Positions 5,775 to 18,949 of a stretch of DNA of 64,000 bases are shown piece after piece. The notes under the pieces are model-generated. The model had not been told where the DNA came from, ran no database searches, and saw only the letters and a list, made by a program, of their open reading frames with translations. The stretch spans positions 160,001 to 224,000 of the forward strand of contig CAWIBO010000003.1 of assembly GCA_963834385.1 (NCBI GenBank), in the 5' to 3' direction. Positions within the stretch are counted from its first letter, which is position 1, and each line of letters opens with the position of its first letter. A program made the position numbers and the translations under genes. Source of the stretch: an uncultured Verrucomicrobiae bacterium (GTDB taxonomy: Bacteria; Verrucomicrobiota; Verrucomicrobiia; Chthoniobacterales; UBA10450).

Positions 5775-7463
5775 ATGGGTTTGGCGGAATACAAGCGGAA
5801 GCGGAACTTCGGCGTCACGGCGGAGCCCAAGGGAGGCAAAGCACTGCCCAAAAAAGTGAAGGGCGCGTCCCGCTTCGTGATCCAGAAGCACGACGCCAGC
5901 CGGCTGCATTACGATTTTCGGCTCGAGATGGACGGCGTCCTCAAGTCGTGGGCGGTTCCGAAAGGGTTGCCCCTGGAGAAAGGGGAGAAACACCTCGCGG
6001 TGGAGGTGGAGGACCATCCGGTGGAGTACGCGACCTTTGAGGGAGTGATTCCGGAGGGCCAGTATGGCGGCGGCACCGTGATGCTGTGGGACGAGGGGAC
6101 CTACTCCGTCTTTGGCGAGAATCCCTTGCAGGCGCTCAAGAAAGGCCGGCTGCATCTGGTTCTGGACGGGAAAAAGGTGCGGGGAGAATGGGCCCTGATC
6201 CGCACCCGGATGGAGGCCGGCAAGCCGCAGTGGCTCCTCCTTAAGGCCACCGAGGATCACAAGCGCATCACCAAAAAGTCCGATGACCAGTCGGCCGTCA
6301 CCGGCCGTTCCATGAAAAAAATCGCGTCCGATCGTGACGCCGAATGGGAATCAAACCGCGCGGACGACCCGGCTTCGTCCCGGTTGAAAAGCCGGGTCCG
6401 GCGGGCTGTAAAAAAAAAGGAAAGCGCGCCCCGACGCCGTCCGGGAAAGGCAAAGAAAAACGGACCTGAGCTTCCGGCCGGCCTGCCGCGAAAGAACCCA
6501 GGTTTCATCTCACCCATGAAACCAAAGCTCGTCTCCGAGCCGCCCGCGGGGGAGGGCTGGGTCTACGAGCTGAAGTTCGACGGAATCCGCGCGCTGGCGG
6601 TGAAAAAGGGGAGGCAGGTGCAGCTTGTCTCGCGCAACGGCAACCAGTTGGCCGGTCGATTCCCGGAGGTCAGCTCGGCCTTTGCCCGTCTCGGGACGGA
6701 GGAATTCGTGGTTGATGGCGAAGTGGTGGCGCTCGATCCGAAGGGGAGAACCTCTTTTCAACTGCTGCAGTCGCGTGAGGCCGATGCCAGGCCGGCTCCG
6801 CTTTGCTATTACGCCTTTGACCTCCTGCAAGCGTCCGGGCATGACCTGACCGGGCTTCCCCTGCGGGAGCGCAAGGAGCTGCTCGAGGCGCTTCTTGGAA
6901 AGGACGATCCCATGCTGCGGTATTCGGGCGAGATCGGTGGATCGCCGGAAAAGCTGCTGCGCGAGATTCAGCGTCTCGGCCTGGAGGGGATCATCGGCAA
7001 GCGGCATGACTCGGTTTATGAAGCCGGGCGCCGCAGCGGGGCCTGGATCAAGTTGAAATGCCTGAACGAGCAGGAATTCGTCATTGGCGGGTTCACCCCC
7101 CCGGCCGGCTCGCGCAAGCACTTTGGCGCCGTCCTGGTCGGTTATTACGAGAAGAAGCGGCTGCTTTTCGCGGGCAAGGTCGGAACCGGGTTTGACGGGA
7201 GGATGCTGCGCGACCTGGCCCGCCGGTTTGAGGATTATGCGCAGGAGGAGTGCCCGTTTGCCGATCTGCCCTCAAAAGCGGGCGGGAAGTGGGTCCAGGG
7301 TATCACCCCGGCGGCCTTCCGGCGCTGCCACTGGCTCCGGCCGGAGCTGGTGTGCCAGGTGCGGTTCGCGGAATGGACGCGGGAGGGCAAGCTGCGCCAG
7401 CCGGTTTTTCACGGTTTACGGGAAGACAAGGCCCCCCGGGAAGTCGTGCGCGAAAAGGCCTGA
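5775..7463 (+). CDS. ligD: NHEJ DNA ligase LigD, phosphoesterase plus ligase domains (no polymerase domain)
   Basis: N-terminal FVIQKHDASRLHYDFRLE and SWAVPKG (PE domain). YELKFDGIR (adenylation Lys), VDGEVV, EGIIGK, WIKLK and C-terminal OB fold. Confidence 0.92.
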   Translation: MGLAEYKRKRNFGVTAEPKGGKALPKKVKGASRFVIQKHDASRLHYDFRLEMDGVLKSWAVPKGLPLEKGEKHLAVEVEDHPVEYATFEGVIPEGQYGGGTVMLWDEGTYSVFGENPLQALKKGRLHLVLDGKKVRGEWALIRTRMEAGKPQWLLLKATEDHKRITKKSDDQSAVTGRSMKKIASDRDAEWESNRADDPASSRLKSRVRRAVKKKESAPRRRPGKAKKNGPELPAGLPRKNPGFISPMKPKLVSEPPAGEGWVYELKFDGIRALAVKKGRQVQLVSRNGNQLAGRFPEVSSAFARLGTEEFVVDGEVVALDPKGRTSFQLLQSREADARPAPLCYYAFDLLQASGHDLTGLPLRERKELLEALLGKDDPMLRYSGEIGGSPEKLLREIQRLGLEGIIGKRHDSVYEAGRRSGAWIKLKCLNEQEFVIGGFTPPAGSRKHFGAVLVGYYEKKRLLFAGKVGTGFDGRMLRDLARRFEDYAQEECPFADLPSKAGGKWVQGITPAAFRRCHWLRPELVCQVRFAEWTREGKLRQPVFHGLREDKAPREVVREKA

Positions 7464-7540
7464 GCTCGCCCCTTGCCGAGGGCGAAGAAAGCTGCATACT
7501 TCCCACTCCTGCGCGCCCTGACATCCGGGGCGGTGGACCC

Positions 7541-7616
<76 letters not shown>

Positions 7617-7660
7617 TGCCGGCAGTTGACCGGGATGACGATGCGGCGCATGTCATGGCC

Positions 7661-8086
7661 ATGAAACGTAAAGCATCGGCAGAATGGAAAGGGGATCTCA
7701 AGACCGGCCAGGGGACGATCTCCACGGAAAGCACCGTCCTGAGCAGCACGCACTATTCGTTCAGCAAACGATTCGAGGAGGAAAAGGGGACCAACCCGGA
7801 AGAGTTGATCGCGGCGGCGCATGCCGGCTGTTTTTCCATGGCCCTTTCGGGGCAACTGGGCGCGGCCAATCTGAAGGCGGAAAGCATTCGCACGACCGCC
7901 TCGGTTTCGCTGGAGAAGGGGGACGGCGGCTTTGCCATCACCGCGATTCACCTGGAAGTCGCGGCGCGGGTGCCCGGGGCGGACGAGGCGGCCTTCGCGA
8001 AGGCGGCCCAGGCGGCGAAAGAGGGGTGTCCGGTCTCCAAAGTGTTGAACGCCAAGATCAGCATGGAAGCGAAGCTGGAAGGCTGA
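7661..8086 (+). CDS. osmC: OsmC family peroxiredoxin
   Basis: GTNPEELIAAAHAGCFSMALS and AKEGCPVSK with both catalytic Cys. Confidence 0.95.
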   Translation: MKRKASAEWKGDLKTGQGTISTESTVLSSTHYSFSKRFEEEKGTNPEELIAAAHAGCFSMALSGQLGAANLKAESIRTTASVSLEKGDGGFAITAIHLEVAARVPGADEAAFAKAAQAAKEGCPVSKVLNAKISMEAKLEG

Positions 8087-8134
8087 AGACCGGCCGGGGC
8101 GGAGGGGGCGCGGCGGATCCCTCTGTACGCAGAA

Positions 8135-8167
8135 GACCGCGTTGCGGGTTCGAGCCGCAACGCGGTC
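8135..8167. terminator. Hairpin between convergent osmC and peptide genes (possible bidirectional terminator)
   Basis: 13-bp perfect stem GACCGCGTTGCGG / CCGCAACGCGGTC; only a weak U tract. Confidence 0.5.
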
Positions 8168-8185
8168 AACGCTAAGGGAGACTGG

Positions 8186-8344
8186 CTACCAGAGGTTCTT
8201 GTTTTTTCCCCCGCCGCCTTTTCCGCCCCCGCCTCCCCCGCCACCGGAGGAGCTGTTGTTCTTGTTCTTATTTCCACCCTTCTTGCCGCCACCTTTGGCG
8301 TCTTTGCTGGGTTTCAGGTCGCGAACTTTAGGTTTAGTTGGCAT
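8186..8344 (-). CDS. Putative double-glycine precursor peptide A, 52 aa (not in ORF track)
   Basis: Manual translation: MPTKPKVRDLKPSKDAKGG-GKKGGNKNKNNSSSGGGGGGGGKGGGGKNKNLW*. A-rich 5' leader; paralogous to peptide B. Confidence 0.85.
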   Translation of the reverse strand: MPTKPKVRDLKPSKDAKGGGKKGGNKNKNNSSSGGGGGGGGKGGGGKNKNLW

Positions 8345-8416
8345 TTACTTGTTTTTTTTGTTTTTGGGTTCGTCGCGTTGGGGATTGGACCCTCTGCGAT
8401 GAAGGTTGGTCGGTCT

Positions 8417-8618
8417 TTAGTTGTTCTTGTTACCGAAGCCGCCGCCTTTTCCGCCGCCGCCGCCGCTCGCTGCCGCCGCCGACGTTATTTCCTTTGCTTC
8501 CCCCGCCGCCGAGGTTGTTGCTCTTGGATTTACCGCCGCCGCCGCCGCCTTTGGCGTCTTTCTGGGGCTCCAGGTCGCGGATTGTTGGTTCGGGTTTCGG
8601 GTCGTTTTGTTTGTCCAT
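8417..8618 (-). CDS. Putative double-glycine precursor peptide B (apparent 1-nt insertion near 8468)
   Basis: MDKQNDPKPEPTIRDLEPQKDAKGG-GGGGKSKSNNLGGGGSKGNNVGGGS; removing one base continues SGGGGGKGGGFGNKNN*, which matches the tail of peptide A. As written it ends ERRRRRKRRRLR* at 8430. Confidence 0.8.
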
Positions 8619-8624
8619 GGTGTG

Positions 8625-8807
8625 TTACTGGTTGTGTTGGTTTGTTGGTTTGTTATCTGAAGAGGCCCCGAAGATCTGCCTTCCGCCGCTGACATCCCCT
8701 TTTGGGAGAAGATCATCGAGCCGGATCAGCTTTTCTTTTCTGCGCTTGGGCTTCCGGGCTTCTGGCCCTTCTGCCGGCGCATTTTCTGTATCCTTCGAGT
8801 CGCTCAC
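8625..8807 (-). CDS. Putative double-glycine precursor peptide C (GTG 8807 preferred; ATG 8846 alternative)
   Basis: MSDSKDTENAPAEGPEARKPKRRKEKLIRLDDLLPKGDVSGG-RQIFGASSDNKPTNQHNQ*. LDDLLPKGDVSGG aligns with the leaders of A and B; its stop lies 6 nt before the start of B. Confidence 0.7.
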   Translation of the reverse strand: MSDSKDTENAPAEGPEARKPKRRKEKLIRLDDLLPKGDVSGGRQIFGASSDNKPTNQHNQ

Positions 8808-8822
8808 GTTGCCCAATACATT

Positions 8823-8838
8823 ATCAGTATCCGTGCCA
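8823..8838 (-). promoter_or_regulatory. Candidate sigma-54 (-24/-12) promoter for the peptide genes
   Basis: Minus strand reads TGGCACGGATACTGAT against consensus TGGCACGNNNNTTGCW: perfect -24 box, correct spacing, GA instead of GC at -12. Confidence 0.55.
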
Positions 8839-8887
8839 GACCCCATTTTCCGTCCTTAACGAACCTCGACAATAATGTATAAGACAC

Positions 8888-8906
8888 TGTAAACGAGAAG
8901 GTTACA
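8888..8906. promoter_or_regulatory. Candidate upstream activator sequence (TGTAA-N9-TTACA)
   Basis: Inverted repeat in an AT-rich intergenic region, 50-70 bp upstream of the -24 box. Confidence 0.35.
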
Positions 8907-8988
8907 AAGAGGCAAATGAGCGAAAATAGGTTGAAAGCGGTCTCGGCGAAACCCTTAAAAAGGCACTAAAACGATACATCCACTGGCC

Positions 8989-10029
8989 TTATTCTGACCC
9001 TTCGGTGGTCGAGTTCTGGGCCATTGCTCGCAAATGGCGGGCAAGGGTGGCACGCGAGATTCCCAGCATCCGGGCGGTCCGCCGTTGGTTGCCGTTCATG
9101 TGACTGTAGACCGCCCGGATATGGCGCTGCACCGCGCTGCTCAGGGACAGGTCGTGATTCTCCTCCGTGGGGCCAGGCGCAAGACCCGAAGCGGCTGCGG
9201 CCGGCGGATCTCCCGGGCCGGGGTTTGTCACGGCCGCGTGGGAAACGGCCAGGTCAGGCGGGAAAACGACGTGGTGGGGCATGATGACCGAGCCCTCGCA
9301 AAACAGAGTCATGGTGCGAACGGTGTGGCTGAGTTCGCGCAGGTTTCCCCGCCAGTCGTGCGCGAGCAGCTTGGCCATGGCCGTGGGGTGAATGGCGGTG
9401 ATTTCCTTGCCTTCGCTCGCCGCGGAATGTTTCAGCTCGCCGGCGATCAACGGGGGCAGCTCTTCCAGGCGTTCACGCAAGGGCGGGATGAGGAGGGTCA
9501 GGCCGTTCAGGCGATGGTAGAGATCCTCCCGAAACTTTCCCTGGCGAACGCGTTCCCGCAGCGAGCAGTTGGTGGCGCAGATGATGCGAACGTCGGAGGT
9601 CAGCATCCGTTCCGACCCAAGCCGCTCGAATTCCCCGTATTCGAGTGCCCGCAGGACCTTGACCTGGGCGAGCGCGCTCATGTCCGCGATTTCGTCGAGG
9701 AAGAGGGTGCCGCCGTCCGCCAGCTCGAACTTTCCCTTCACCGTCTGCTGCGCTCCGGTGAAGGCGCCCCGTTCATGACCAAAGAGCTGGGATTCGAGGA
9801 GAGAATCGGTCATGGCCGAGGCGTTAAAGGCGATGAACGGCTGTTTGGCCCGGGTGGAGGAGTTGTGAATGGCGTGGGCCAGGAGCGTCTTGCCGGTCCC
9901 GGTCTCCCCGAGGAGGACGACGGGAACGTCGGAGCGGGCGGCGAGGGCGGCGAGGCGCAGGCAGCGGGCCATGGCCTCATTCGTCGTGGCCAAATCCTCC
10001 ACGCGCAGGTCGGAGAGCGTCCGCTGCAT
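8989..10029 (-). CDS. Sigma-54 enhancer-binding protein (AAA+ and Fis HTH) lacking an N-terminal sensory domain
   Basis: Walker A GETGTGKT, intact GAFTGA, LFLDEI, FREDLYHRL, WRGNLREL and HTH GNQRRTARMLGISRATL. The AAA+ domain starts within ~10 aa of the Met. Confidence 0.93.
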   Translation of the reverse strand: MQRTLSDLRVEDLATTNEAMARCLRLAALAARSDVPVVLLGETGTGKTLLAHAIHNSSTRAKQPFIAFNASAMTDSLLESQLFGHERGAFTGAQQTVKGKFELADGGTLFLDEIADMSALAQVKVLRALEYGEFERLGSERMLTSDVRIICATNCSLRERVRQGKFREDLYHRLNGLTLLIPPLRERLEELPPLIAGELKHSAASEGKEITAIHPTAMAKLLAHDWRGNLRELSHTVRTMTLFCEGSVIMPHHVVFPPDLAVSHAAVTNPGPGDPPAAAASGLAPGPTEENHDLSLSSAVQRHIRAVYSHMNGNQRRTARMLGISRATLARHLRAMAQNSTTEGSE

Positions 10030-10036
10030 CAGCCGG

Positions 10037-11207
10037 CTAGTTTACCGCGAGGTTTTCCTTGAGTTCCTTGATCGGCTCGAAGAACGACTCGATCAGGGTT
10101 CTCTTGCCGGTAACGATGCGGGCTTCGCCGCGCATCCCGACGCGCAGGGCGAGCTTGGGCGGCCTTTTTTCCCAGTCCTGGATGGTGGCGACCCCGACGA
10201 AGCGGGGTCCTTCCTGCGAGTTGACGGCGGAGGGGCTGATCCAGTCGAGACGGGCGTTGACGGCGCCATAGCGCTGGTAGGGGAAGGCGTCGAAAAAGAG
10301 CTTGGTGCTGAGCCCGGCGGTGAGCTTGGAAAGCCCGGCCTCGGAGAGGAGGAGCCGGGCTTGCGGGGTGGCCTCGACCCGGGCGAGCTGGCAGAGTTCC
10401 TGGCCATTCTGGACCACGTTGCCGACGCTGCGCTGGGAAACGGAAATAACCACGGCATCGTAGGGGGCCTGCACGGTCAGGAGGCTGAGCTGGCTGTTCT
10501 CGAGGTCGCCCTGCAGGGCGGCGAGTTTGACCCGGAGTTTCCCGATCTCCGAGACGGCATCGCCGCGCTGGCGGGCATGATCGGTCTCCATTTTTTGCCG
10601 GTCCAGGATCACCTGCTGCAGGGTTCTCTGCGCCACGCTCTGGTCCTTCTCGGACTCAGCGAGGTCGAGGCCGAGCTGGAGCAGTTCCACCTGGGAAATG
10701 CCGCCGGTCTTGGAGAGTTTCTCCATGCGCTCGACGAGTTCGCGGCTGGTGGAGGCGTGTTTCTCGCGAAATTCGACCTCGCTTTTGGCCTGCTCGATCT
10801 CGGCCTCCTTGATCTTTCTGCTGGGCGGCGAAAGCGGCATCCGCGCGTTCCAGGTTTTCCTCCTGCGCTTTGAGATCGGCCTCGGTGGTCCTGAGATCGG
10901 TGTTCCAGCTCCTGATTTCGTCCGAGCGCAGAACAAACAATTCCTCTCCCTTCTTCACCGTCTGGCCCTCGCGCGCGGCGACCTTGGTGACGACGGCCTG
11001 GCGGGGCGACTGGATCGGATCGGCGCCATCCTGCGGGACGAGGACAAACGGGCAATCCACCGTCTCCGGCAGGCGCACGATGATGGTGGCGAGGACGGCG
11101 ACAATGAACATGGCGATGAGGAGGCGGGAAGCCGCCCGGATGATCCAGGGGGGTGGATCCTGCGGGAGCATTTCCGACTCGGACTCGAAGGAATTGGAGG
11201 ACGCCAT
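10037..11207 (-). CDS. HlyD-family membrane fusion protein (apparent 1-nt insertion near 10816)
   Basis: N-terminal TM segment, lipoyl half-motif REGQTVKKGEELF, coiled coil, then DAFPYQRYGAV and LRVGMRGEARIVTGKRTLIE. The two ORFs join by removing one T of TTT at 10815-10817. Confidence 0.9.
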
Positions 11208-11216
11208 GGGATATGC

Positions 11217-14200
11217 CTAGTGGAAACCGGACTGCTGGCTGGAGAGATAAAAGTAGAGACCGCGCTGTTCCATGAGCTGGTCGTGATTGCCGGCCTCGGC
11301 GATGCGGCCTTTTTCCAGGACCACGATGGTATCCGCATCGCGGATGGTGCTGAGGCGGTGGGCGATGGCGAGGGTGGTGCGGCCGGCCATGAGGCGCCCG
11401 AGGTTGTTCTGGATGGCGCGCTCCGACTCGGTATCCAGGGCGCTGGTGGCCTCGTCGAAAATGAGAATCGGCGGGTTGTTATAGATGGCGCGGGCGATGG
11501 CGATGCGCTGTTTCTGCCCGCCGGAAAGGGAAAGCCCCGATTCGCCGATCTTGGTTTCGTAGCCCATGGGGAGGCGCATGATGAAATCGTGGGCGGCGGC
11601 GGCGGAAGCGGCCGCGAGGACCCGGTCGAGATCCGGCTCCGCATCCCCGAAGGCGATGTTGCGGGCGATCGTCTCGTTAAACATGTGGTTCTCCTGGAGA
11701 ACCATGCCGACGTGCCGCCGGACGTCGCGGTAATTCAGGCTCTTCAGGTCGACGTTATCGAAAAGAATGGTCCCCTCGGTCGGCTCGAGCAGTCCGGCGA
11801 TGAGCTTGATCAGGGTGGTCTTGCCGCAGCCGCTGCGCCCGACGAAGGCGATCATCTTGCCGGGGGCGATGTCGAGATTGAGGTCGCTCAGGATGTTGGG
11901 CGCCTCGGGTCCGCCGTAGCGGAAGCTGACGTTGCGCAGCTCGATCCGGCCTTCAAGGCTGTGCACCGGGGTGAGGCGGGAACGGTCGCGACCCTGCTCC
12001 GGTTCCTGCTCGAAGATGTCGTTCAGGCGATTGAGAAGAACGGAGGAGAACTGGAGATTGTCCCAGACGCCGAGGGTGCGCAGGATGCCGCCGTAAGCCA
12101 TGGCGGTGAGGGAACTGAAAGCGACGAAGCCGCCGACGCTGATGGCGCCGGACATCACCTGGTTGGCCCCGACCCAGAGGAAGACAGCGGTGGAAACAAG
12201 CCCGATCGTGGTCAGGACACTGTCGTAGGACATGACGATAAAGCTGCTCCGGAAGATCTTTTTCGAGACGGCGAGGAACTCGTTCAGCATCAGGTCGCGA
12301 AAGACGCCCTCGGCCGCGGCGGCTTTGACCGCCTCGATGCCCTTGATGGCGTCGATCTGGTGCGAGCTGTATTTGCCCTGGCTTTCCTCGACATCGGCAA
12401 AGAGCGGCCGCAGGATTTTGACGGAAAAATACATCAGCCCGACGTAGAAGGGGGTGGTCGCGAGGAAGGCGAACATGAGGAATGGGCTGTAGACCATCAT
12501 CAGCCCCAGGGAACCGACCAACTGGATCAGGGCCAGGAGGGCGCCGATGCCCTCGCCCACGGCGAACTGGCGGACTTCGCGGGCCCCGTCGAGACGCCGC
12601 TGGATGTCGCCGGTGCGCCGGCTCGTGAAATACGTCATGGGCAGGGAGAGGAGCTGCCGGCTGAGGAAATCGAGAATGGCGGTATCGAGACGAACCGCGG
12701 TGAAGGAGAGAAGGTATTCCTGCGCGAGCGAGGCACCCTGGACGAAGATGATCGCGAGGGCCATGCCGAGGAGAATGGTGGAAAGAAGGTCGATATCCTT
12801 TTCCACGATGACCTTGTCGACCACCATCTGGGTGAAGATGGGAAAGAGGAGCTGGAGGACGCTGATGGCGACGGAAAGGATCAGGACCTGGATGAGGATG
12901 TGCTTGAACTTCGCGATGAAGGGAAGAACCCAGTTGATGGAAGGTTTGCTCTCCGGCGCCTGTTCAAAGGCGGGCGTGTAATCAAAAAGCGCGGCGTACC
13001 CCGACCAGTTCTCCTCGAACTCCTTGCGCGGGATCTTGCGCAGGCCAAGCGCCGGGTCGGCCACGCGGACAAAAGTGTCCTGCACGTCGTAAAGGACCAT
13101 CCAGTGGTTGCCTTCCCAGTGCACGATGGCCGGGAGCGGCATGAGCGAGAGATTGCGGATGGAAACCTTGAGGGCCCGGGCGGCGAGGCCCAGTTCGTTC
13201 GCAGCCCGGCAAAGCGCCTTCAGGCTGGTCCCGTCCGTGGCGGTGTGACAAAGCTGCCGGATCCGGGCGAGGCTGACCTTGCGTCCGAAATGGCGGCAAA
13301 TCATCCCGAGACTGGCGGCGCCGCAATCCATCTCGTCGATCTGCTGGATATGCTCAAAACGCTTGATCCGGCCGGTGCGTTTCTTGAAGAAACCCTCCTC
13401 GTCGGCAAAAGGATGCTTCGGATCCTCCACCGGCGGGGGCCGTTCGGCCGCGCCATCCAGGGCCGTCTTGTCGTGCGTCCGCGTTTCCGCCGGCAGGAGC
13501 TCGGTCGAAAAATCGAGCGGGACCCGCGCCTCCGTTTCGAGCTGGTACTGGGCCAGCCGTTCCTCGAGGAGCTTTTCAAACTCGGGGAAGTGCCGCTTCA
13601 GGTCCTGCACTGCCTCGGGCTCGAGGGCCAGCAGCCGGCAATCGGAGAATGCTTCCACGGAAGCGGCGCGGGAGGACCCGTTCAGGATCGAGAGTTCGCC
13701 GAAGAAATCGCCGTCGCGGTAAAAGGCGAGATTCTTCTGGGAACCATTGTTCTGGGCAAAGGCCCGGGCGCGCCCTTTCTCGAGGATATACATGGGGCCG
13801 GCCGGCGCTCCCTCCTCGATGATGAGGTTGCCCTTTTCGACCTGCACCGGCTCGAGCTTGGCGATGAGGCTGCGGAGCGCGCTCGCGGGCAGGCGCCCAA
13901 AATTGCTGAACTCGTAGAGGAAACCCTGCAAGGCGCGATGGCGGGCCGTCAGCTCAATATGCTGCTTCAGGTCGGGGATTCTCTCGGCCAGTTCAAAAAA
14001 GTCGGTCCGGGCCAGGCGAAGCGCCTCCACCCCGGTGCTGCAGCGAACGGTGGCGGCCCGGGTGCCGCCATCGGAAAGGGCGGCTTCGCCGAAAATATCG
14101 CCCGGACGCAGGGTGCCGAGCGCGATCTCCTCTCCATTGGGCTGCATCTTGATCGCGCGCGCCCGGCCGGAAATGATGACGTAGACGGCGTCGGCGGGAT

Positions 14201-14336
14201 CGCCCTGGCGGACAATGATCTCGCCGAAATCGAACTGTTCCTCGCGGAGGAGGGGACGAAGCTTGTCGAAATGTTCCTCCGGGAGGAGCCGGAAGAGGGA
14301 GGACCGCCTGAGTAAATCTTCGTCGCGCGTCTTCAT
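11217..14336 (-). CDS. Peptidase-containing ABC transporter: 2x cNMP-binding + C39 peptidase + TMD + NBD (1039 aa)
   Basis: FGEAALSDGGTRAATV and FGELSILNGSSRAASV (cNMP cassettes). QIDEMDCGAA, VHWEGNHW and VADP (C39 Cys-His-Asp). GRSGCGKT, LSGGQKQR and FDEATSALD. ATGA overlap with the upstream gene. Confidence 0.95.
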   Translation of the reverse strand: MKTRDEDLLRRSSLFRLLPEEHFDKLRPLLREEQFDFGEIIVRQGDPADAVYVIISGRARAIKMQPNGEEIALGTLRPGDIFGEAALSDGGTRAATVRCSTGVEALRLARTDFFELAERIPDLKQHIELTARHRALQGFLYEFSNFGRLPASALRSLIAKLEPVQVEKGNLIIEEGAPAGPMYILEKGRARAFAQNNGSQKNLAFYRDGDFFGELSILNGSSRAASVEAFSDCRLLALEPEAVQDLKRHFPEFEKLLEERLAQYQLETEARVPLDFSTELLPAETRTHDKTALDGAAERPPPVEDPKHPFADEEGFFKKRTGRIKRFEHIQQIDEMDCGAASLGMICRHFGRKVSLARIRQLCHTATDGTSLKALCRAANELGLAARALKVSIRNLSLMPLPAIVHWEGNHWMVLYDVQDTFVRVADPALGLRKIPRKEFEENWSGYAALFDYTPAFEQAPESKPSINWVLPFIAKFKHILIQVLILSVAISVLQLLFPIFTQMVVDKVIVEKDIDLLSTILLGMALAIIFVQGASLAQEYLLSFTAVRLDTAILDFLSRQLLSLPMTYFTSRRTGDIQRRLDGAREVRQFAVGEGIGALLALIQLVGSLGLMMVYSPFLMFAFLATTPFYVGLMYFSVKILRPLFADVEESQGKYSSHQIDAIKGIEAVKAAAAEGVFRDLMLNEFLAVSKKIFRSSFIVMSYDSVLTTIGLVSTAVFLWVGANQVMSGAISVGGFVAFSSLTAMAYGGILRTLGVWDNLQFSSVLLNRLNDIFEQEPEQGRDRSRLTPVHSLEGRIELRNVSFRYGGPEAPNILSDLNLDIAPGKMIAFVGRSGCGKTTLIKLIAGLLEPTEGTILFDNVDLKSLNYRDVRRHVGMVLQENHMFNETIARNIAFGDAEPDLDRVLAAASAAAAHDFIMRLPMGYETKIGESGLSLSGGQKQRIAIARAIYNNPPILIFDEATSALDTESERAIQNNLGRLMAGRTTLAIAHRLSTIRDADTIVVLEKGRIAEAGNHDQLMEQRGLYFYLSSQQSGFH

Positions 14337-15415
14337 TCTTCGATCATCTGGTAAAAGAGGCGCCACTGGATGTGGACGCCGCAAAGCTCGTCGAAGTGGC
14401 GCTGCAGGATGGCCTGCTGCACCCGGCCGCTGACCATCTCGTCCTCCAGGCTGGGTTCGATCTTGCTGGTGACCCGTCCGATCTCAAAAACGTCTCCCTG
14501 CTCGATCGGCCCGAGGACCGCACCGGGCGAAACGCTGAGATATTTTTGTTGCCAGTCCTCGTTCACGTTTTCGAGCACCACCTGCGACTGGCGATAGGGA
14601 TACCCTCCTTCGTCCGCCACTTCCTTCATGGTCATGCCGTCTTCGCGTACGCAAAGCAAGGCTTCATTCGCCGCATCAAGTGAATCAAACTGGATCACCT
14701 CGAGCTCGAAACGGGTCAGGGGCAGACGGAGGGAGGATAGTTCCTCGGCCCGCGCCTGCGGGTTCACGAGAGAGCCACTGCGGGCGCGGTAGGCGGCTTC
14801 CGCCTCCAGGGCGTGGTCCAGCCAGGCCTTTTCGCGATCGATCTGTCCCAGCCAGGCCTCGACCTCCTCCTCCCGGAGCCCGTGGCGCTCGAGAAATTCC
14901 TCCCGGGCCCGGGCAACCGCCGCCGGGTCCACCTCTTCTTCAGCCCGTCGCACGGCCACCCGCCAGCCCAGCTGCGTGGCGATCCGTTCGAGCTCGTCGG
15001 AGAAAAGAAGGTGGGCGGCAAAAAGTTCCTTCAGCTCTTTCCCGGCCCCGGGGTAGGCCTGGTCGGGGAGGTCGATTCTGACTGTCCGCGCCCAGTAACG
15101 GCGGCTGAAGAAGTCGCCGAAATCATTCATGTCGAGCCCGCGGGCGGAGAGCCATTTCTCCGTCTCCTCCGCCGTGATCAGGTCGTGCTGATAACGAAAG
15201 GCGTCCGCGGCTTCGTCGAGGGCGTCCCCCTCGATCTCCAGGTCATCCTGGTGGGCCTTTTTTTCCGCCTCCACTCCCCGCAGGAAGTCCGCCCAAATCG
15301 GGCCCAACTCTCCGCGGAAAAGGGCGCCATCAATCACATCGCGCAAGGTGTAAGTCTGGTTACCCGACTCAAATACCGTTACATCCTGCCGTGCCTTTTC
15401 CTCTGTCGCGGTCAT
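14333..15415 (-). CDS. Parvulin/PpiC-related foldase-like protein, translationally coupled to the transporter
   Basis: LDEAADAFRYQHDLITAEETEKWLSARGL and C-terminal SPGAVLGPIEQGDVFEIGRV...EPSLED resemble the PpiC-like proteins found beside cNMP-containing peptide transporters. Catalytic motifs look degenerate; no signal peptide. Confidence 0.65.
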   Translation of the reverse strand: MTATEEKARQDVTVFESGNQTYTLRDVIDGALFRGELGPIWADFLRGVEAEKKAHQDDLEIEGDALDEAADAFRYQHDLITAEETEKWLSARGLDMNDFGDFFSRRYWARTVRIDLPDQAYPGAGKELKELFAAHLLFSDELERIATQLGWRVAVRRAEEEVDPAAVARAREEFLERHGLREEEVEAWLGQIDREKAWLDHALEAEAAYRARSGSLVNPQARAEELSSLRLPLTRFELEVIQFDSLDAANEALLCVREDGMTMKEVADEGGYPYRQSQVVLENVNEDWQQKYLSVSPGAVLGPIEQGDVFEIGRVTSKIEPSLEDEMVSGRVQQAILQRHFDELCGVHIQWRLFYQMIEE

Positions 15416-15534: not shown

Positions 15535-16062
15535 TCAGGCCGCGAGCAGCGGGGAAACCGGACGGGCGGATTCAACACCCCCGAACTTCGGATAAAGAAA
15601 GCGAGCCACCACGCTGGAGCGCTTGGCCAGGGCCGACGCCCGCCGCAATCCGGCCTCGGCGAGGAGGTGGAGAGCGCTTTCCATGAGCAGGGCGGCAAAG
15701 CCCCGGTTCCGATATTCCATCAGGATGCAGGGTCCGGGGGCGAGGTGATACTCCGACTCCGGGTCGAGGGAGAGCATGGTGGCGCCGATGATGCGCTGGC
15801 CATGCTTGAGCACGAGACCGGCATGCAAACCGCTCTCGGGGGCAAAGGCTCCCTCCAGCCATTGGTCGATCAACTCGCTCATTTCCTGAAGCTCCGGGTT
15901 CCACGACGAATCGAGGACGAAGGAGGTGGCAATGGCCCGGCGGATTTCCTGCTCGTCGCCTTCCTCTGCGGGCAGGACGCGATAATGTTCCGGCGCGCCG
16001 AGGCCGGGCGGCGGAAGCTGCGTCAAGTCCCACGAAAAACGTGTCCAGTTATCCCTTCTCAT
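15535..16062 (-). CDS. GNAT-family N-acetyltransferase-like protein
   Basis: ILMEYRNRGFAALL (acetyl-CoA motif A) and ARFLYPKFG (motif B-like); start uncertain. Confidence 0.7.
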   Translation of the reverse strand: MRRDNWTRFSWDLTQLPPPGLGAPEHYRVLPAEEGDEQEIRRAIATSFVLDSSWNPELQEMSELIDQWLEGAFAPESGLHAGLVLKHGQRIIGATMLSLDPESEYHLAPGPCILMEYRNRGFAALLMESALHLLAEAGLRRASALAKRSSVVARFLYPKFGGVESARPVSPLLAA

Positions 16063-16214
16063 AAGTCGGGGGCGCCCGGTCGAGAGACCGGAAACAACCC
16101 TTCCCGGAGGTGTTAACGCGGCAACCATGGTTGTGAGACGCACTTTCCTGCGTCACCCAAGTTAAAATCGTGGCGCCGCCCCTCCCCGGATGGGACAAAA
16201 CGGCGCGGTTGGCT

Positions 16215-16682
16215 TCAGATCGACTGGACGGCCTTCATCGTCTCGTGGAACGACTGGTAAAGTTCGCGGTATTGGGCGACGCCGCGGCGAAGGACCGGCT
16301 TGAAGTTGGCGAGGTCGGCCACGTTGACGATCTGGTCAACGCTTTGCACGAAGGCGCTCATGGCGTCGTTGGTGGCGAAGCGATGGCTGAGGAGGACGAC
16401 GAAGTGCTGGCGGCGCTGGGCGCCGGTCGTGCTCGTCATGTAGCGCAGGATTGGGTTGGCCTGGAGGGTGGATCCCTTGAAGGTCTCGTAGATCACGACC
16501 ACATCGTAATTGTAGGTCTTGAGTTTGAGGAGAACGTCCTCCTCGTAGAGGCCGAGGTGGACCTTGTAGGAGATGTCGATCAGCTGCGGCACGATCACCT
16601 TCTGATATTGCTGGTGATCGACGCAGACGAGGGCGGTGTTATCGCCGGCGTCGAAGAAGGAGGAATCGTTGGTCTGGATCAT
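16215..16682 (-). CDS. Hypothetical protein with degenerate receiver-like fold, co-operonic with pilT genes
   Basis: Alternating beta/alpha pattern (ALVCVD...YDVVVIYE...FVVLLS); high-GC3 codon usage; 6 nt downstream of the pilT paralog. Confidence 0.7.
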   Translation of the reverse strand: MIQTNDSSFFDAGDNTALVCVDHQQYQKVIVPQLIDISYKVHLGLYEEDVLLKLKTYNYDVVVIYETFKGSTLQANPILRYMTSTTGAQRRQHFVVLLSHRFATNDAMSAFVQSVDQIVNVADLANFKPVLRRGVAQYRELYQSFHETMKAVQSI

Positions 16683-16688
16683 GGCGGT

Positions 16689-17855
16689 TTAGCGGAAGGC
16701 GTTGGCGGGAAGGTCGAGGCGAAGTCCGGAATCGAGGTCGCTGTCGATGCCGCGCGCCTTCTGAATCAGGTCGAGCCCGCGGGCGATCCGGCCTTTGCGG
16801 CTGGCATAAAGCCGGGCCGTGTTTTCGTCGATGGCGCCGTTTTCGTAGGCATTGAGGATCGACTGGTCGAAGGTGAGCCAGCCGAAGGGGGTGCTGGCCT
16901 CGATGATTTCGTAGAAGTTGCGGTGTTCACCTTCGCCAAGAGCGATGGTTTCCTTGGTCCGCAGATTGTTGCCCATGATCTCGGCAAGGAGATGACGGCC
17001 GCCGCCGGCCCGGGGGACGAGGCGCTGGCTCACGATGTAGCGAAGGGTGTCGGAAAGGCGGAGGCGCAACTGCTGTTCTTCGCCGAGGGAGAAGAGGCCG
17101 AGGATGCGGTTGATCGACTGGCCGGCGTCGACCGTGTGCAGGGTGCTGAGGACGAGGTGACCGGTCTCGGCCGCCATGAGGGCGACCTCGACGGTGGCGC
17201 GGTCGCGCATTTCGCCTACGAGGATGACCTTGGGAGCCTGGCGCAGGGCGGCGCGCAGGCCGTTGGGATAGTTGTTAAAATCGTGGCCCAGCTCGCGCTG
17301 ATTAAAGGTGGCGCGGTGAGACCGGTGGATGAACTCGATCGGGTCCTCCAGGGTCACGATATGCACGGCCTGCTTTTCGTTGATCTCGTTCAGGAGAGCG
17401 GCCAGCGTCGTGGTCTTGCCGCTGCCGGTGGCGCCGGTGACCAGGATAAGGCCGGTCTTTTCGCGCGCGATCTCCTCGAAGATGGGCGGCAGTTCGAGGC
17501 CGCCCAGCGTCGGGATCTGGGCCTGCAGCTTGCGCATGACAATGGAGAACTGGCCCTGTTGCCGGAAGATATTGACGCGGAAACGCGCCTCCTCCCCCAG
17601 GGTGTAGCTGCAGTCGCAGGAGCCCCCAGTGAGATAATCGTAGAGAAGACGACGGTTGCCCTGCATCAAAGTCAGGGCGATCTGCTCGGTCTGGTGCGGC
17701 GTCAGGGCCTCAATCGGCGGATCGACGAAGACCGGCTTGAGTTCGCCGAAGTCCTCCACCTGGAGGGGACGGCCGACGGAAAAATTGAGGTCGGAAATGC
17801 CGTCATACGTCTGCAGCATGGCCGAAAGAATGCGGTCGAGGTCGGGAATTCGCAT
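16689..17855 (-). CDS. PilT/PilU-family type IV pilus retraction ATPase
   Basis: GATGSGKTTT, TLEDPIEF, ALRQAPKVILVGEMRD and AETGHLVLSTLHT motifs. Confidence 0.93.
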   Translation of the reverse strand: MRIPDLDRILSAMLQTYDGISDLNFSVGRPLQVEDFGELKPVFVDPPIEALTPHQTEQIALTLMQGNRRLLYDYLTGGSCDCSYTLGEEARFRVNIFRQQGQFSIVMRKLQAQIPTLGGLELPPIFEEIAREKTGLILVTGATGSGKTTTLAALLNEINEKQAVHIVTLEDPIEFIHRSHRATFNQRELGHDFNNYPNGLRAALRQAPKVILVGEMRDRATVEVALMAAETGHLVLSTLHTVDAGQSINRILGLFSLGEEQQLRLRLSDTLRYIVSQRLVPRAGGGRHLLAEIMGNNLRTKETIALGEGEHRNFYEIIEASTPFGWLTFDQSILNAYENGAIDENTARLYASRKGRIARGLDLIQKARGIDSDLDSGLRLDLPANAFR

Positions 17856-17866
17856 GGCGGGGCGAT

Positions 17867-18949
17867 TTATTCGTCGGTGAGGTCGGTCGGCGGGTTCTTG
17901 AGGAAGGGCCGGAATTTTTTCTTATCGAGGCACTTGTCGTAGGCTTCCTCGGGAGAGATGCGGGCCTCGCGGAGGTGCTCCATGATGGCGTCGTCGAGCG
18001 GCTGGTTGCCCTTTTTCTTGCCCACCTGGATCATGCCGGGGATCTGGTGGGTCTTGGCCTCGCGGATCAGGTTGGCAATGGCCATGTCGACCACGAGGAT
18101 CTCGAGGGCGGCAACGCGGCCGGGCCGGTCGATGCGCTTGAACAGGTTCTGGGCGATGACGCCCTTGAGCGACTCGGCCAGGGTGGTGCGGATCTGGTTT
18201 TGCTGGCTGGTCGGGAAGACATCAACCACGCGGTCGACCGCCTTGGAGGCGCTGGAGGTGTGGAGCGTGCCGAAAACAAGGTGGCCGGTGGCGGCGGCGG
18301 TGAGCGCGAGCTCAATGGTCTCGAGGTCGCGCATTTCGCCGACGAGCAGGATATCGGGATCTTCGCGCAGGGCGCCGCGGAGGGCGGCGGCGAAGGAGCG
18401 GGTATGGACGCCCACCTCGCGGTGCTGCACCAGGCAATTCTGGCTGCGGTGCACAAACTCGATCGGGTCCTCCACCGTGATGATGTGGTCGTGCCTTTGC
18501 AGGTTCGCGTAATCCATCATGGCCGCGAGCGTGGTCGACTTGCCGGAGCCGGTCGGGCCGGTGACCAGAATGAGACCTTTTTTCAGGAGCGGAAATTTTT
18601 TCAGGACCGGCGGCAGGTTCAACTGCTCGACCGTCAGGACCGTGGAAGGAATCAGGCGGAAGACCGCGGAGATGCCGTATTTCTGCTGGAAAAAGTTGGC
18701 GCGGTAGCGGGCGACGCCCGGCACTTCATAGCCGAAATCGACGTCGGAAGTTTCCTCGAAGAGTTTGATCTTACCCTCCGGGGCGATCTCATAGACCATG
18801 GCCTTGAGTTCGTCGTTGGCGAGCGCGGGGTAGTCGACCCGGATCAGCTCGCCATTGATGCGAAGCATCGGCGGGTTGTTCGTGGAAAGGTGAAGGTCCG
18901 AGGCCTTTTGCTCGGACATAAGTTTGAAGAAAGCGTCAATGCGAGCCAT
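17867..18949 (-). CDS. pilT: Type IV pilus twitching motility ATPase PilT
   Basis: GPTGSGKSTT, TVEDPIEF, ALREDPDILLVGEMRD, TGHLVFGTLHT and the AIANLIRE (AIRNLIRE-like) motif. Confidence 0.95.
   Translation of the reverse strand: MARIDAFFKLMSEQKASDLHLSTNNPPMLRINGELIRVDYPALANDELKAMVYEIAPEGKIKLFEETSDVDFGYEVPGVARYRANFFQQKYGISAVFRLIPSTVLTVEQLNLPPVLKKFPLLKKGLILVTGPTGSGKSTTLAAMMDYANLQRHDHIITVEDPIEFVHRSQNCLVQHREVGVHTRSFAAALRGALREDPDILLVGEMRDLETIELALTAAATGHLVFGTLHTSSASKAVDRVVDVFPTSQQNQIRTTLAESLKGVIAQNLFKRIDRPGRVAALEILVVDMAIANLIREAKTHQIPGMIQVGKKKGNQPLDDAIMEHLREARISPEEAYDKCLDKKKFRPFLKNPPTDLTDE

Follow-up and report, generated by a model that had tools for sequence, protein, structure and literature searches.

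In the double-glycine systems, among them ComA, LagD, CvaB, PCAT1 and LahT, several precursor peptides share one exporter, an ATP-binding cassette (ABC) transporter with a C39 peptidase domain that bears the catalytic Cys and His and is encoded next to an HlyD-type adaptor. The precursors carry a short N-terminal extension that ends in Gly-Gly and has a small hydrophobic residue at position -4. The classical consensus of this leader is LSxxELxxIxGG, with hydrophobic residues at -4, -7 and -12 (and also -15), an acidic-Leu pair at -8/-7 and the form of a single amphipathic helix. Here we describe a locus with the same general features in a stretch of 64,000 nucleotides (the window; positions 160,001 to 224,000 of contig CAWIBO010000003.1, assembly GCA_963834385.1) from an uncultured bacterium of the Verrucomicrobiota, order Chthoniobacterales. 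Three consecutive small open reading frames (ORFs) on the minus strand, A, B and C, have the motif h-x-D-L-x-P-x-x-D-[AV]-x-G-G in common and lie downstream of a four-gene cassette that includes a C39 transporter and an HlyD-family protein. From the comparisons given below we consider it likely that A, B and C are ribosomally made precursors with a divergent double-glycine leader, exported by this adjacent type-I-like cassette.

The anatomy of the locus is that of peptide type-I secretion in Gram-negative bacteria, to which it adds putative transcription of the sigma-54 type, exporter domains of the cyclic nucleotide monophosphate (cNMP)-binding type and a SurA-like protein. Compared with class II bacteriocins, competence pheromones and class II microcins, the acidic-Leu pair stands three residues further from the Gly-Gly. 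Unlike classical leaders, those described here place their hydrophobic residues at -15, -13, -10 and -4; the Pro at -8 is invariant, -7 is occupied by a polar residue, and the cores that follow are hydrophilic and repetitive. A signal pattern for microcins, R-x-[IL]-x9-G-[GAS], is given in PMC12219008; it does not fit here, because only seven residues separate the Leu from the Gly.

The exporter itself has an architectural counterpart in HetC of Nostoc PCC 7120, the best-studied exporter of this kind, in which a cNMP-binding domain is likewise followed by C39 and ABC domains. According to PMC10986499, the peptidase and ATPase residues of HetC are needed for function, its cNMP domain, which is required in vivo, binds ppGpp in vitro, and its substrate is an acknowledged open question; hetC has no double-glycine peptide gene nearby. 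The present locus differs from HetC in having candidate substrates next to the exporter and a second cNMP domain on it, and in that a SurA-like protein and a dedicated activator of sigma-54 are encoded beside the exporter. A further likeness is to the rosaritide (mir) graspetide cluster, which also combines a cytoplasmic, SurA-like and PpiC-related protein (MirC, TIGR04500) with a peptidase-containing transporter (MirD). According to PMC13097080, the mir precursor has a predicted transporter cut site and MirC is an experimentally required partner protein, whose N-domain weakly resembles the recognition element of peptides that are ribosomally synthesised and modified after translation (RiPPs) and whose C-domain is reported to be unlike the peptidyl-prolyl isomerase domain of Cj1289. 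In contrast to mir, no ATP-grasp ligase was found here, the SurA-like protein scores 33 bits against a cut-off of 180 for TIGR04500, and its parvulin-like domain has apparently been kept. Leader families of the NHLP and Nif11 types, which Haft and colleagues reportedly described in 2010, are said to be served by dedicated peptidase-containing exporters, and they are likewise lineage-specific and multi-copy, with a long conserved leader up to Gly-Gly, hypervariable cores and one dedicated exporter. The leader described here has no sequence relation to them (no NCBIfam match), the transporter falls below the cut-off of TIGR03796, and lanthipeptide or cyclodehydratase genes are absent.

A probable precursor family with its own leader

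The three ORFs had been singled out beforehand as tandem genes with a common motif, and both the ORF list and a motif scan of the whole genome bear this out. Peptide A (8186..8344, minus strand; 52 amino acids), which is found in the ORF list, in the motif scan and as the first row of an alignment of 51 family members, is a precursor of what we call type 1. It has a K-rich N-terminus, then VRDLKPSKDAKGG, then a Gly/Lys/Asn-rich core with an NLW end; its sequence reads MPTKPKVRDLKPSKDAKGG up to the Gly/Lys/Asn-rich tail. Peptide B (8417..8618, minus strand; called as an ORF of 62 amino acids at 8430-8618) is also of type 1 and was read from a three-frame translation, in which IRDLEPQKDAKGG forms part of the stretch ...PTIRDLEPQKDAKGG.... 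Peptide C (8625..8807, minus strand; 60 amino acids from a GTG start) is a type-2 precursor. Its motif stretch is LDDLLPKGDVSGG, or more fully ...KLIRLDDLLPKGDVSGG..., and after ...KRRKEKLIRLDDLLPKGDVSGG it continues with RQIFGASS. The Gly-Gly falls at residues 18-19 in A and 26-27 in B. For C the GTG at 8807 is favoured over an ATG at 8846, since a promoter-like element (8838-8821) lies between the two candidates and relatives keep both the GTG and the protein from there onwards; the original prediction had let C end at the same coordinate.

The called frame of B ends in an Arg-rich stretch, ERRRRRKRRRLR, and an alternative frame ends in SGGGGGKGGGFGNKNN* with a stop at 8417, close to the tail of A. 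Because ERRRRRKRRRLR represents GGC repeats read out of frame and the other frame is A-like, B appears to carry a frameshift, and the called tail is probably an artefact of a mutation or of an assembly indel. Programmed frameshifting was considered for B and rejected, as the frameshift occurs in no relative and the HlyD gene of the same locus is broken too.

A six-frame search of the 2.9-Mb genome, which the original prediction had proposed, gave four matches to the strict motif, every one in a short ORF: A, B, C and one on another contig of this genome, C1, near 62608. A relaxed motif (D/E/N, L/I/M, D/N, A/V/I, G[GAS]) still returned only these four, and the control in which the DNA pattern was read backwards gave no match in this genome. 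With four matches genome-wide and none added by the relaxed motif, chance is excluded. The fourth member, MEQTTNTKKATDLKIRDLTPIKDAKGG..., lies at about 62479-62740 on the plus strand of C1, outside the window and unlinked to the cassette, and has a promoter-like element about 100 nucleotides upstream and duplicated sequence blocks downstream.

The motif is kept far beyond this genome. The DNA pattern was matched in 17 of 41 related genomes, 16 of them genuine, with 36 matches compared with 2 in the backwards control; the match in genome G014 was discarded as a chance match inside an unrelated frame. Peptides extracted from the relatives have a lysine-rich start and share M..KK.K.IKVRDLKPxKDAKGG, the part before the Gly-Gly varying as (I/V)K(V)RDLKPxKDAKGG, and continue into unrelated cores. 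A stricter pattern, DL.P.KD[AV]KGG, run over one genome per prokaryotic species, found at least 122 stretches. Among the 122 matches listed, 114 are labelled Verrucomicrobiota (Chthoniobacterales, Candidatus Udaeobacter, 'Spartobacteria' and one Verrucomicrobiales); the other eight are contigs of metagenome-assembled genomes (MAGs) assigned to Acidobacteriota, Gemmatimonadota, 'delta proteobacterium', Nitrospirota, Alphaproteobacteria and Scandinavium, some of them very short. In a sample of 301 genomes from the phylum, family-like, K-rich matches were found only in the window's own taxonomic family (this genome and both of the two others); elsewhere in that sample there were about 31 mostly single matches without the family lysines, as against about 17 in the backwards control. 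The peptides are nearly confined to MAGs of Chthoniobacterales and Candidatus Udaeobacter.

A profile built from the 51-member alignment (A1) retrieved 2,935 clusters at 90% identity (E<=1e-3). None of the 120 of these that were listed has a Pfam domain, and their names are nearly all absent or 'hypothetical protein'. Run against every representative protein, the same profile retrieved 794 clusters at 50% identity, and in the ESM Atlas the matches were only 'hypothetical protein' clusters from Verrucomicrobiota. The nucleotide variation has the pattern expected of genes. Mean entropy at the first, second and third codon positions is 0.58, 0.42 and 1.37 for type 1 (105 sequences) and 0.72, 0.57 and 1.33 for type 2 (67 distinct sequences), and the third-position variation is also seen at residues that the retrieval pattern does not constrain, such as V-4 and the Gly-Gly of type 2. 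This concentration of variation at third codon positions indicates that the ORFs are translated and under selection as protein.

When 163 distinct peptides were classed by subtype, 108 were of type 1, 20 of type 2 and 23 of type 3. Type 1, which comprises A, B and the copy on C1, has a leader of about 25 amino acids and a core whose median length is 29 amino acids, composed of 13% Gly, 11% Ser, 10% Gln, 9% Asn, 8.5% Thr, 8% Arg and 6% His. These type-1 cores contain only 2.5% Asp plus Glu, have Cys in 14 of 264 cases, a median net charge of +2 and a hydrophobic fraction of 15%. Tandem repeats (at least three copies of a unit of 3-12 residues) occur in 55 of 353 cores compared with 7 after shuffling, five-residue periods being common. 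Type 2, represented by C, has a longer leader (about 42 amino acids in C), is semi-conserved after the Gly-Gly (RQLLFGxTD...) and in many members has N at -5; its gene usually comes next after that of the activator, and heads the peptide operon in most relatives. Type 3 (NINVVRSAWRR...IIRDLKPVKDVKGGGG...) is absent from this genome. At loci L054, L064, L076, L086, L088, L109-L112 and others it reads NINVVRSAWRRVKKDIKDAIIRDLKPVKDVKGGGGVxGxSKP..., in which the DL.P..DVKGG element is kept and the N-terminus differs, and the type-3 loci have no conserved neighbouring gene. A further form was seen on a contig of an Acidobacteriota MAG (L100), where an ORF of 56 amino acids at 6988-7155 on the minus strand has two tandem copies of the element (LKDLKPKSTAVKGG ... 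NKDLPPKKDVKGG); the cassette is absent within 7 kb of it.

The original prediction had called this a distinct leader family, and it can be upheld: the motif is conserved well outside this genome, it is covered by no curated model and it is tied to one type of C39 transporter. Among the positions which had been proposed as invariant, a hydrophobic residue at -13, D-11, L-10, P-8, D-5, a small hydrophobic residue at -4 and the Gly-Gly are indeed present in all three ORFs, but D-5 does not hold across the family, where many C-type peptides have N. A logo of 262 relatives has A at -4, K/S/R/N/T/A at -7, P at -8, L at -10, D at -11, R at -12, V at -13 and I/V at -15. Hydrophobic residues are thus spaced at -15/-13/-10/-4, P-8 does not vary and -7 is polar, and the classical residue pattern (hydrophobic residues at -4, -7 and -12, acidic-Leu at -8/-7) is not matched by this logo. 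The length of the leader, with a median of 25 amino acids in 264 relatives, lies within the range of about 15-30 residues for an N-terminal extension that ends in Gly-Gly (or GA/GS) just ahead of the core. The curated leader and bacteriocin models of Pfam and NCBIfam gave no relevant match to A, B or C at E<=10, and at the same threshold none of the 51 aligned members matched such a model. In two defining respects, its residue pattern and its standing against curated models, the leader is thus not a classical double-glycine leader. The system would nevertheless operate like other pairs of double-glycine leader and peptidase transporter, with a divergent leader.

How the C39 domain would read such a leader is a separate question, for which the original prediction proposed a distinct recognition mode; such a mode is possible. 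Residues -15 and -13 alternate in a strand-like manner and P-8 is invariant, which makes the leader a poor fit to the single amphipathic helix of classical leaders. A complex prediction that combined an alignment of the C39 domain with leader residues 1-32, run without controls, reached a score of 0.12 compared with a mark of 0.32 and is given no weight either way.

The export cassette and its link to the peptides

Upstream of the peptides and on the same strand lies a cassette of four genes. The first encodes a SurA/PrsA-like protein of 360 amino acids (14333..15415, minus strand) with a C-terminal parvulin-type domain. It has no Pfam match and is distantly related to TIGR04500 ('putative peptide maturation system protein'), with 33.3 bits for the protein of the window and 49.7 bits for that of a relative, both below the cut-off of 180. 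An AlphaFold2 model made from an alignment of 30 sequences has a mean predicted local distance difference test score (pLDDT) of 92.6, and in a Foldseek search this model matched PrsA, SurA and PEB4/Cj1289, its C-terminal part matching parvulin domains. The protein is probably cytoplasmic, because inspection revealed no obvious signal peptide.

The second gene encodes the peptidase-containing ABC transporter (11217..14336, minus strand), whose ATG overlaps the stop codon of the gene upstream (ATGA). It consists of two cNMP-binding domains (two PF00027 matches), the C39 peptidase (PF03412, 7e-37), the transmembrane domain (PF00664, 5e-39) and the ATPase (PF00005, 9e-37). The genome has no C39 domain other than this, which lies 4.3 kb upstream of the peptides on the same strand. 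The Gln, the catalytic Cys (DCGAAS), the His (GNHW) and the Asp (ADPA) are all kept. When the C39 domain alone was searched against the PDB the best alignments were to LahT, ComA and PCAT1; the full-length transporter gave only generic ABC matches there. The best match to a named peptidase-exporter model of NCBIfam was to the NHLP-type TIGR03796, with 539 bits against a cut-off of 853. Both cNMP domains have FGE..L...R-A-A-[TS]-V motifs like a phosphate-binding cassette, which we take to resemble that of PKA.

The third gene, for an HlyD-family membrane fusion protein (10037..11207, minus strand), is present as two overlapping ORFs through a frameshift near 10815. In relatives it is a single ORF of about 393 amino acids, and in a tblastn comparison frames -2 and -3 met at 10815/10816, both halves being about 64% identical to one intact gene of a relative. 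The fourth gene encodes a sigma-54 enhancer-binding protein (8989..10029, minus strand; PF00158, 4e-64, and PF02954, also found with NCBIfam), which has AAA+ and HTH_8 domains only and is without a receiver or sensor domain. TolC-type genes are present elsewhere in the genome.

The evidence that the peptides and this cassette belong together comes from their distribution. In the same 41 related genomes, transporters were retrieved independently of the peptide motif, and a strong C39 match (E of about 1e-37, open frames of 1004-1140 amino acids) was found in 17. All 16 genomes with genuine peptides have the transporter, while of the other 25 only one (G013, 84% complete) has it. In 13 of the 16 the peptides follow the C39 domain on the same strand, at a distance of 4.3-5.2 kb downstream (an unpublished genome, G007, is counted among both the 16 and the 13); in the other three they are elsewhere. 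In all 13 loci that were fetched, the four cassette genes are the only ones syntenic with the window. Among the matches listed, 57 loci on public contigs have 6 kb or more of sequence upstream of the motif, and 36 of these contain the transporter and 35 the activator; some of these loci overlap one another and the counts are approximate. In the remaining public loci the peptide copies are 'orphans', like the fourth peptide of this genome. The original prediction would have been contradicted by a motif unconserved in relatives or unlinked to C39 transporters, and we looked at both: the motif is conserved and goes with the transporter.

On a contig of a Gemmatimonadaceae MAG (L120, about 6300-7700, minus strand) the whole cassette is also found, with a transporter 54% identical to that of the window, together with two small ORFs. 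One is type-2-like. The other has IKDLPAKK and, at a distance, LSREQEEKVKGG (LSxxxxxxVKGG), which is more classical, and it represents an intermediate form of the leader. Around orphan and type-3 peptide genes no gene family recurred among the neighbours except proteins with tetratricopeptide repeats (TPR). In one of these loci (L056:4478-6868, minus strand) a TPR protein fused to an adenylate/guanylate cyclase domain lies near an orphan type-1 peptide gene, and in another (L066:7186-10023, minus strand) a TPR protein fused to a Ser/Thr kinase domain lies directly upstream of one; the pattern is anecdotal, though the exporter has cNMP domains.

Between the activator gene and peptide C is a sequence resembling a sigma-54 promoter, TGGCACGGATACTGATAA (8821..8838, minus strand). 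The consensus for sigma-54 is TGGCACG-N4-TTGCW, with GG at -24 and GC at -12 in fixed spacing; here the -24 element fits and the -12 element reads TGAT instead of TTGC. When the spacers between activator and peptide genes of relatives were aligned, a conserved TTGGCA[CT]G-N3-N1-2-TG[GAT]T-AA was seen about 31-33 nucleotides before the type-2 GTG, so that the -24 TGGCA[CT]G and the spacing are conserved and the -12 element is [CG]TG[GAT]T, the T-G being kept and the C lost. This pattern precedes 10 of 16 type-2 and 29 of 107 type-1 genes, and is absent from the reverse-complement controls; the type-1 matches are mostly about 215 nucleotides away, in front of an intervening type-2 gene. In a stricter form it has exactly two matches in the genome, at 8838 (minus strand) of the window before C and at C1:62479, about 100 nucleotides before the fourth peptide. 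As the motif was derived from the relatives' own aligned intergenic regions, independent support for it comes from this second match, in front of an unlinked peptide gene. The textbook consensus TGGCAC-N5-TTGC was not enriched over the reverse-complement control. The genome has rpoN (DNA-binding domain, 5e-60, contig C2). Given the element and the adjacent activator, we read it as a promoter of the sigma-54 type which would define a small regulon made of peptide genes. From the promoter geometry, the transcript would be nearly leaderless for C.

Proposed mechanism and rival explanations

A possible sequence of events can be put forward for this system. The lone sigma-54 activator would switch on the -24/-12 promoter before C, giving a transcript in the order C, B, A that would end at a hairpin after A. 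Each precursor would have a basic, conserved N-terminal leader ending in D-L-x-P-x-x-[DN]-[AV]-x-G-G and would be cut after the Gly-Gly by the cysteine-peptidase domain (C39) of the transporter, and the core could then pass through the transporter and the HlyD adaptor to a TolC-type outer-membrane channel encoded elsewhere. The two cNMP-binding domains may gate processing or export in response to a second messenger, and the SurA/PrsA-like protein, translationally coupled to the transporter, might hold or present the Pro-containing leader. It is thus a candidate for a second reader of that part of the leader. Since the locus has no conserved gene for a modifying enzyme, the cores are probably released without modification; those of type 1 are polar, mildly cationic, often tandemly repetitive and hypervariable.

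It is plausible that recognition is divided in two, with I-K-V-R-D-L-x-P read by the SurA-like protein and x-K-D-A-K-G-G by the C39 domain. The peptide from the Gemmatimonadaceae contig, in which IKDLPAKK and LSxxxxxxVKGG stand further apart, hints that the two parts of the leader are separable. Reading of the leader by the SurA-like protein would be a hand-off like that by a RiPP recognition element, without a modifying enzyme. On a bolder and decidedly tentative interpretation, to which we give rather little weight, the family could be the first natural substrate class for second-messenger-gated peptidase exporters of the HetC type, which have cNMP domains, recognised through such a two-part leader. 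As for the cores, microcin-like antagonism is the role we would name first, as a possibility that falls short of an even chance; signalling is less likely, and other extracellular roles are a little less likely again. The type-2 peptides, given their semi-conserved core, would be better candidates for signalling than type 1.

Several observations weigh against export of the three peptides as double-glycine precursors. The type-2 sequence is semi-conserved past the Gly-Gly (RQLLFG...), and the Gly-Gly may belong to a recognition element of greater length and not serve as a cut site alone. In 21 of the 57 listed loci with enough upstream flank no transporter is nearby, and two relatives have the cassette without an adjacent peptide. 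Peptide B and the HlyD gene (near 10815) are both frameshifted in this genome, which may reflect decay of this copy or indel errors in the assembly. The promoter pattern is found upstream of none of the 23 type-3 genes, and its -12 element is without the usual GC (TGnT instead of TTGC). The cores are hydrophilic and of low complexity (15% hydrophobic, 2.5% D+E); those class II bacteriocins that have been characterised are more hydrophobic or amphipathic than this, and the cores do not resemble typical bacteriocins of the pore-forming kind. No conserved candidate for an immunity gene, such as a class II microcin would have, was found in the 13 fetched loci.

Two other explanations seem to us improbable to about the same degree. 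The peptides could be RiPP precursors whose cores are modified, for example by an enzyme working with the SurA-like, TIGR04500-type partner, before the transporter finishes them. The relation of the cassette's first gene to TIGR04500, distant as it is, points this way, as proteins of that family accompany ATP-grasp peptide loci (PMC8939145) and maturation of rosaritide requires MirC (PMC13097080); the best named match of the transporter, moreover, is an NHLP-type model (TIGR03796, 539 bits against 853). But synteny is limited to the four cassette genes, among which there is no modifying enzyme, the graspetide ATP-grasp TIGR04187 was not found in this genome (89.6% complete), and apart from the TPR proteins no gene family recurs beside the orphan and type-3 loci. 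The cores are also poor in the usual cross-linking residues (Asp/Glu 2.5%, Cys in 14 of 264), and such hypervariable sequences suit the fixed recognition pattern of an enzyme poorly. It is equally improbable that the peptides are not secreted at all and are small basic cytoplasmic proteins, regulators of the activator or binders of nucleic acid or the ribosome, with a structural Gly-Gly and a link to the transporter that reflects co-regulation. Here one can cite the conserved Lys-rich N-terminus (36% Lys), which resembles a nucleic-acid-binding tail, one database copy automatically named 'ribosome assembly protein YihI', an activator that without a sensory domain needs a partner for its control, the conservation of type 2 beyond the Gly-Gly and the many copies unlinked to the cassette. 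The distribution argues otherwise: the transporter is present in 16 of 16 genomes with peptides, and the peptides are missing together with it in 24 of the other 25. Nor was another candidate substrate seen for the genome's only C39 domain, whose catalytic residues are intact, and a conserved leader up to Gly-Gly followed by a hypervariable C-terminal part is the layout of a precursor with leader and core.

The near invariance of the leader over hundreds of clusters, set beside low-complexity and unconstrained cores, would also be expected if the N-terminal 25-mer ending in Gly-Gly itself carried the function, as a mini tag or signal that the papain-like C39 domain sets free, and the core were disposable. 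Conserved leaders with variable cores are, however, the rule for exporters with many substrates, the type-2 cores are semi-conserved, and we know of no precedent among peptidase-containing transporters; we regard this as very improbable. The idea that the ORFs are not genes but frames left open by chance in GC-rich intergenic sequence is effectively refuted. The odd composition of the region (GC 0.48-0.59 compared with 0.63-0.68 in the flanks, and a strong AT skew) and the broken frame of B could be quoted in its favour, but third-position wobble with conserved amino acids, thousands of homologous ORFs and a fixed position relative to the conserved cassette and promoter speak against it. Export as precursors with a divergent double-glycine leader remains the reading we prefer.

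In the literature on double-glycine peptides, C39 and cNMP exporters, microcins, TIGR04500 and bacteriocins of Verrucomicrobiota and Udaeobacter we found no description of the family. Among the literature matches listed for the motif strings KDAKGG, KDVKGG and RDLKP only the last occurred, and those papers that were recognised concern protein kinases. The main text of PMC12219008 does not contain 'Verrucomicrob'; its supplementary lists, which fall outside that statement, could hold such sequences. The peptides would add a large and completely unannotated precursor family, of at least 794 clusters at 50% identity, to the exported peptides of bacteria. Searches with the classical consensus are blind to it, and peptide-mining pipelines would need a new leader model. 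The pairing of candidate substrates with a cNMP-domain peptidase exporter allows a direct test, with defined parts, of whether a ligand gates processing, and a SurA-like 'partner protein' that accompanies an exporter without a modifying enzyme suggests a role in chaperoning or presentation, possibly a general one. The source lineage, Chthoniobacterales and Candidatus Udaeobacter, consists of uncultured bacteria that count among the most abundant of soils. If the two-part leader and the gating by a second messenger are both true, an abundant soil lineage would release hyper-diversified polar repeat peptides on a nutritional signal.

Surroundings of the peptide operon

Directly after the stop codon of peptide A is a GC-rich hairpin with a 13-bp stem (8135..8167, minus strand; -41.1 kcal/mol, z = -4.0, none of 200 shuffles being as stable). 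It is likely to be a terminator, shared with a convergent OsmC-like gene. A simple scan for promoters and terminators gave nothing useful on the minus strand, and the hairpin was not flagged by it because it is without a long T run. Hairpins of this kind are conserved after type-1 genes at other loci (L034, L035, L038, L039 and L041), where they have the form CCGCACTGTGG-TTCGATC-CCACAGTGCGG, and their loop resembles the T-loop of a tRNA (GGTTCGAxCC). A tRNA-Phe gene lies near the peptide operon at 7541-7616 (plus strand), just beyond the convergent OsmC-like gene, which ends at 8086. Across 8100-9000 the GC fraction drops from about 0.65 (0.63-0.68 in the flanks) to 0.48-0.59, with a strong AT skew.

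As the flanks of the cassette are non-syntenic between relatives, it is possible that the unit is mobile or often rearranged. Upstream of the cassette in the window, a GNAT acetyltransferase and two ATPases of the PilT/T2SSE type are encoded at 15535-18949 (minus strand), and these are non-syntenic in the loci of the 13 relatives.

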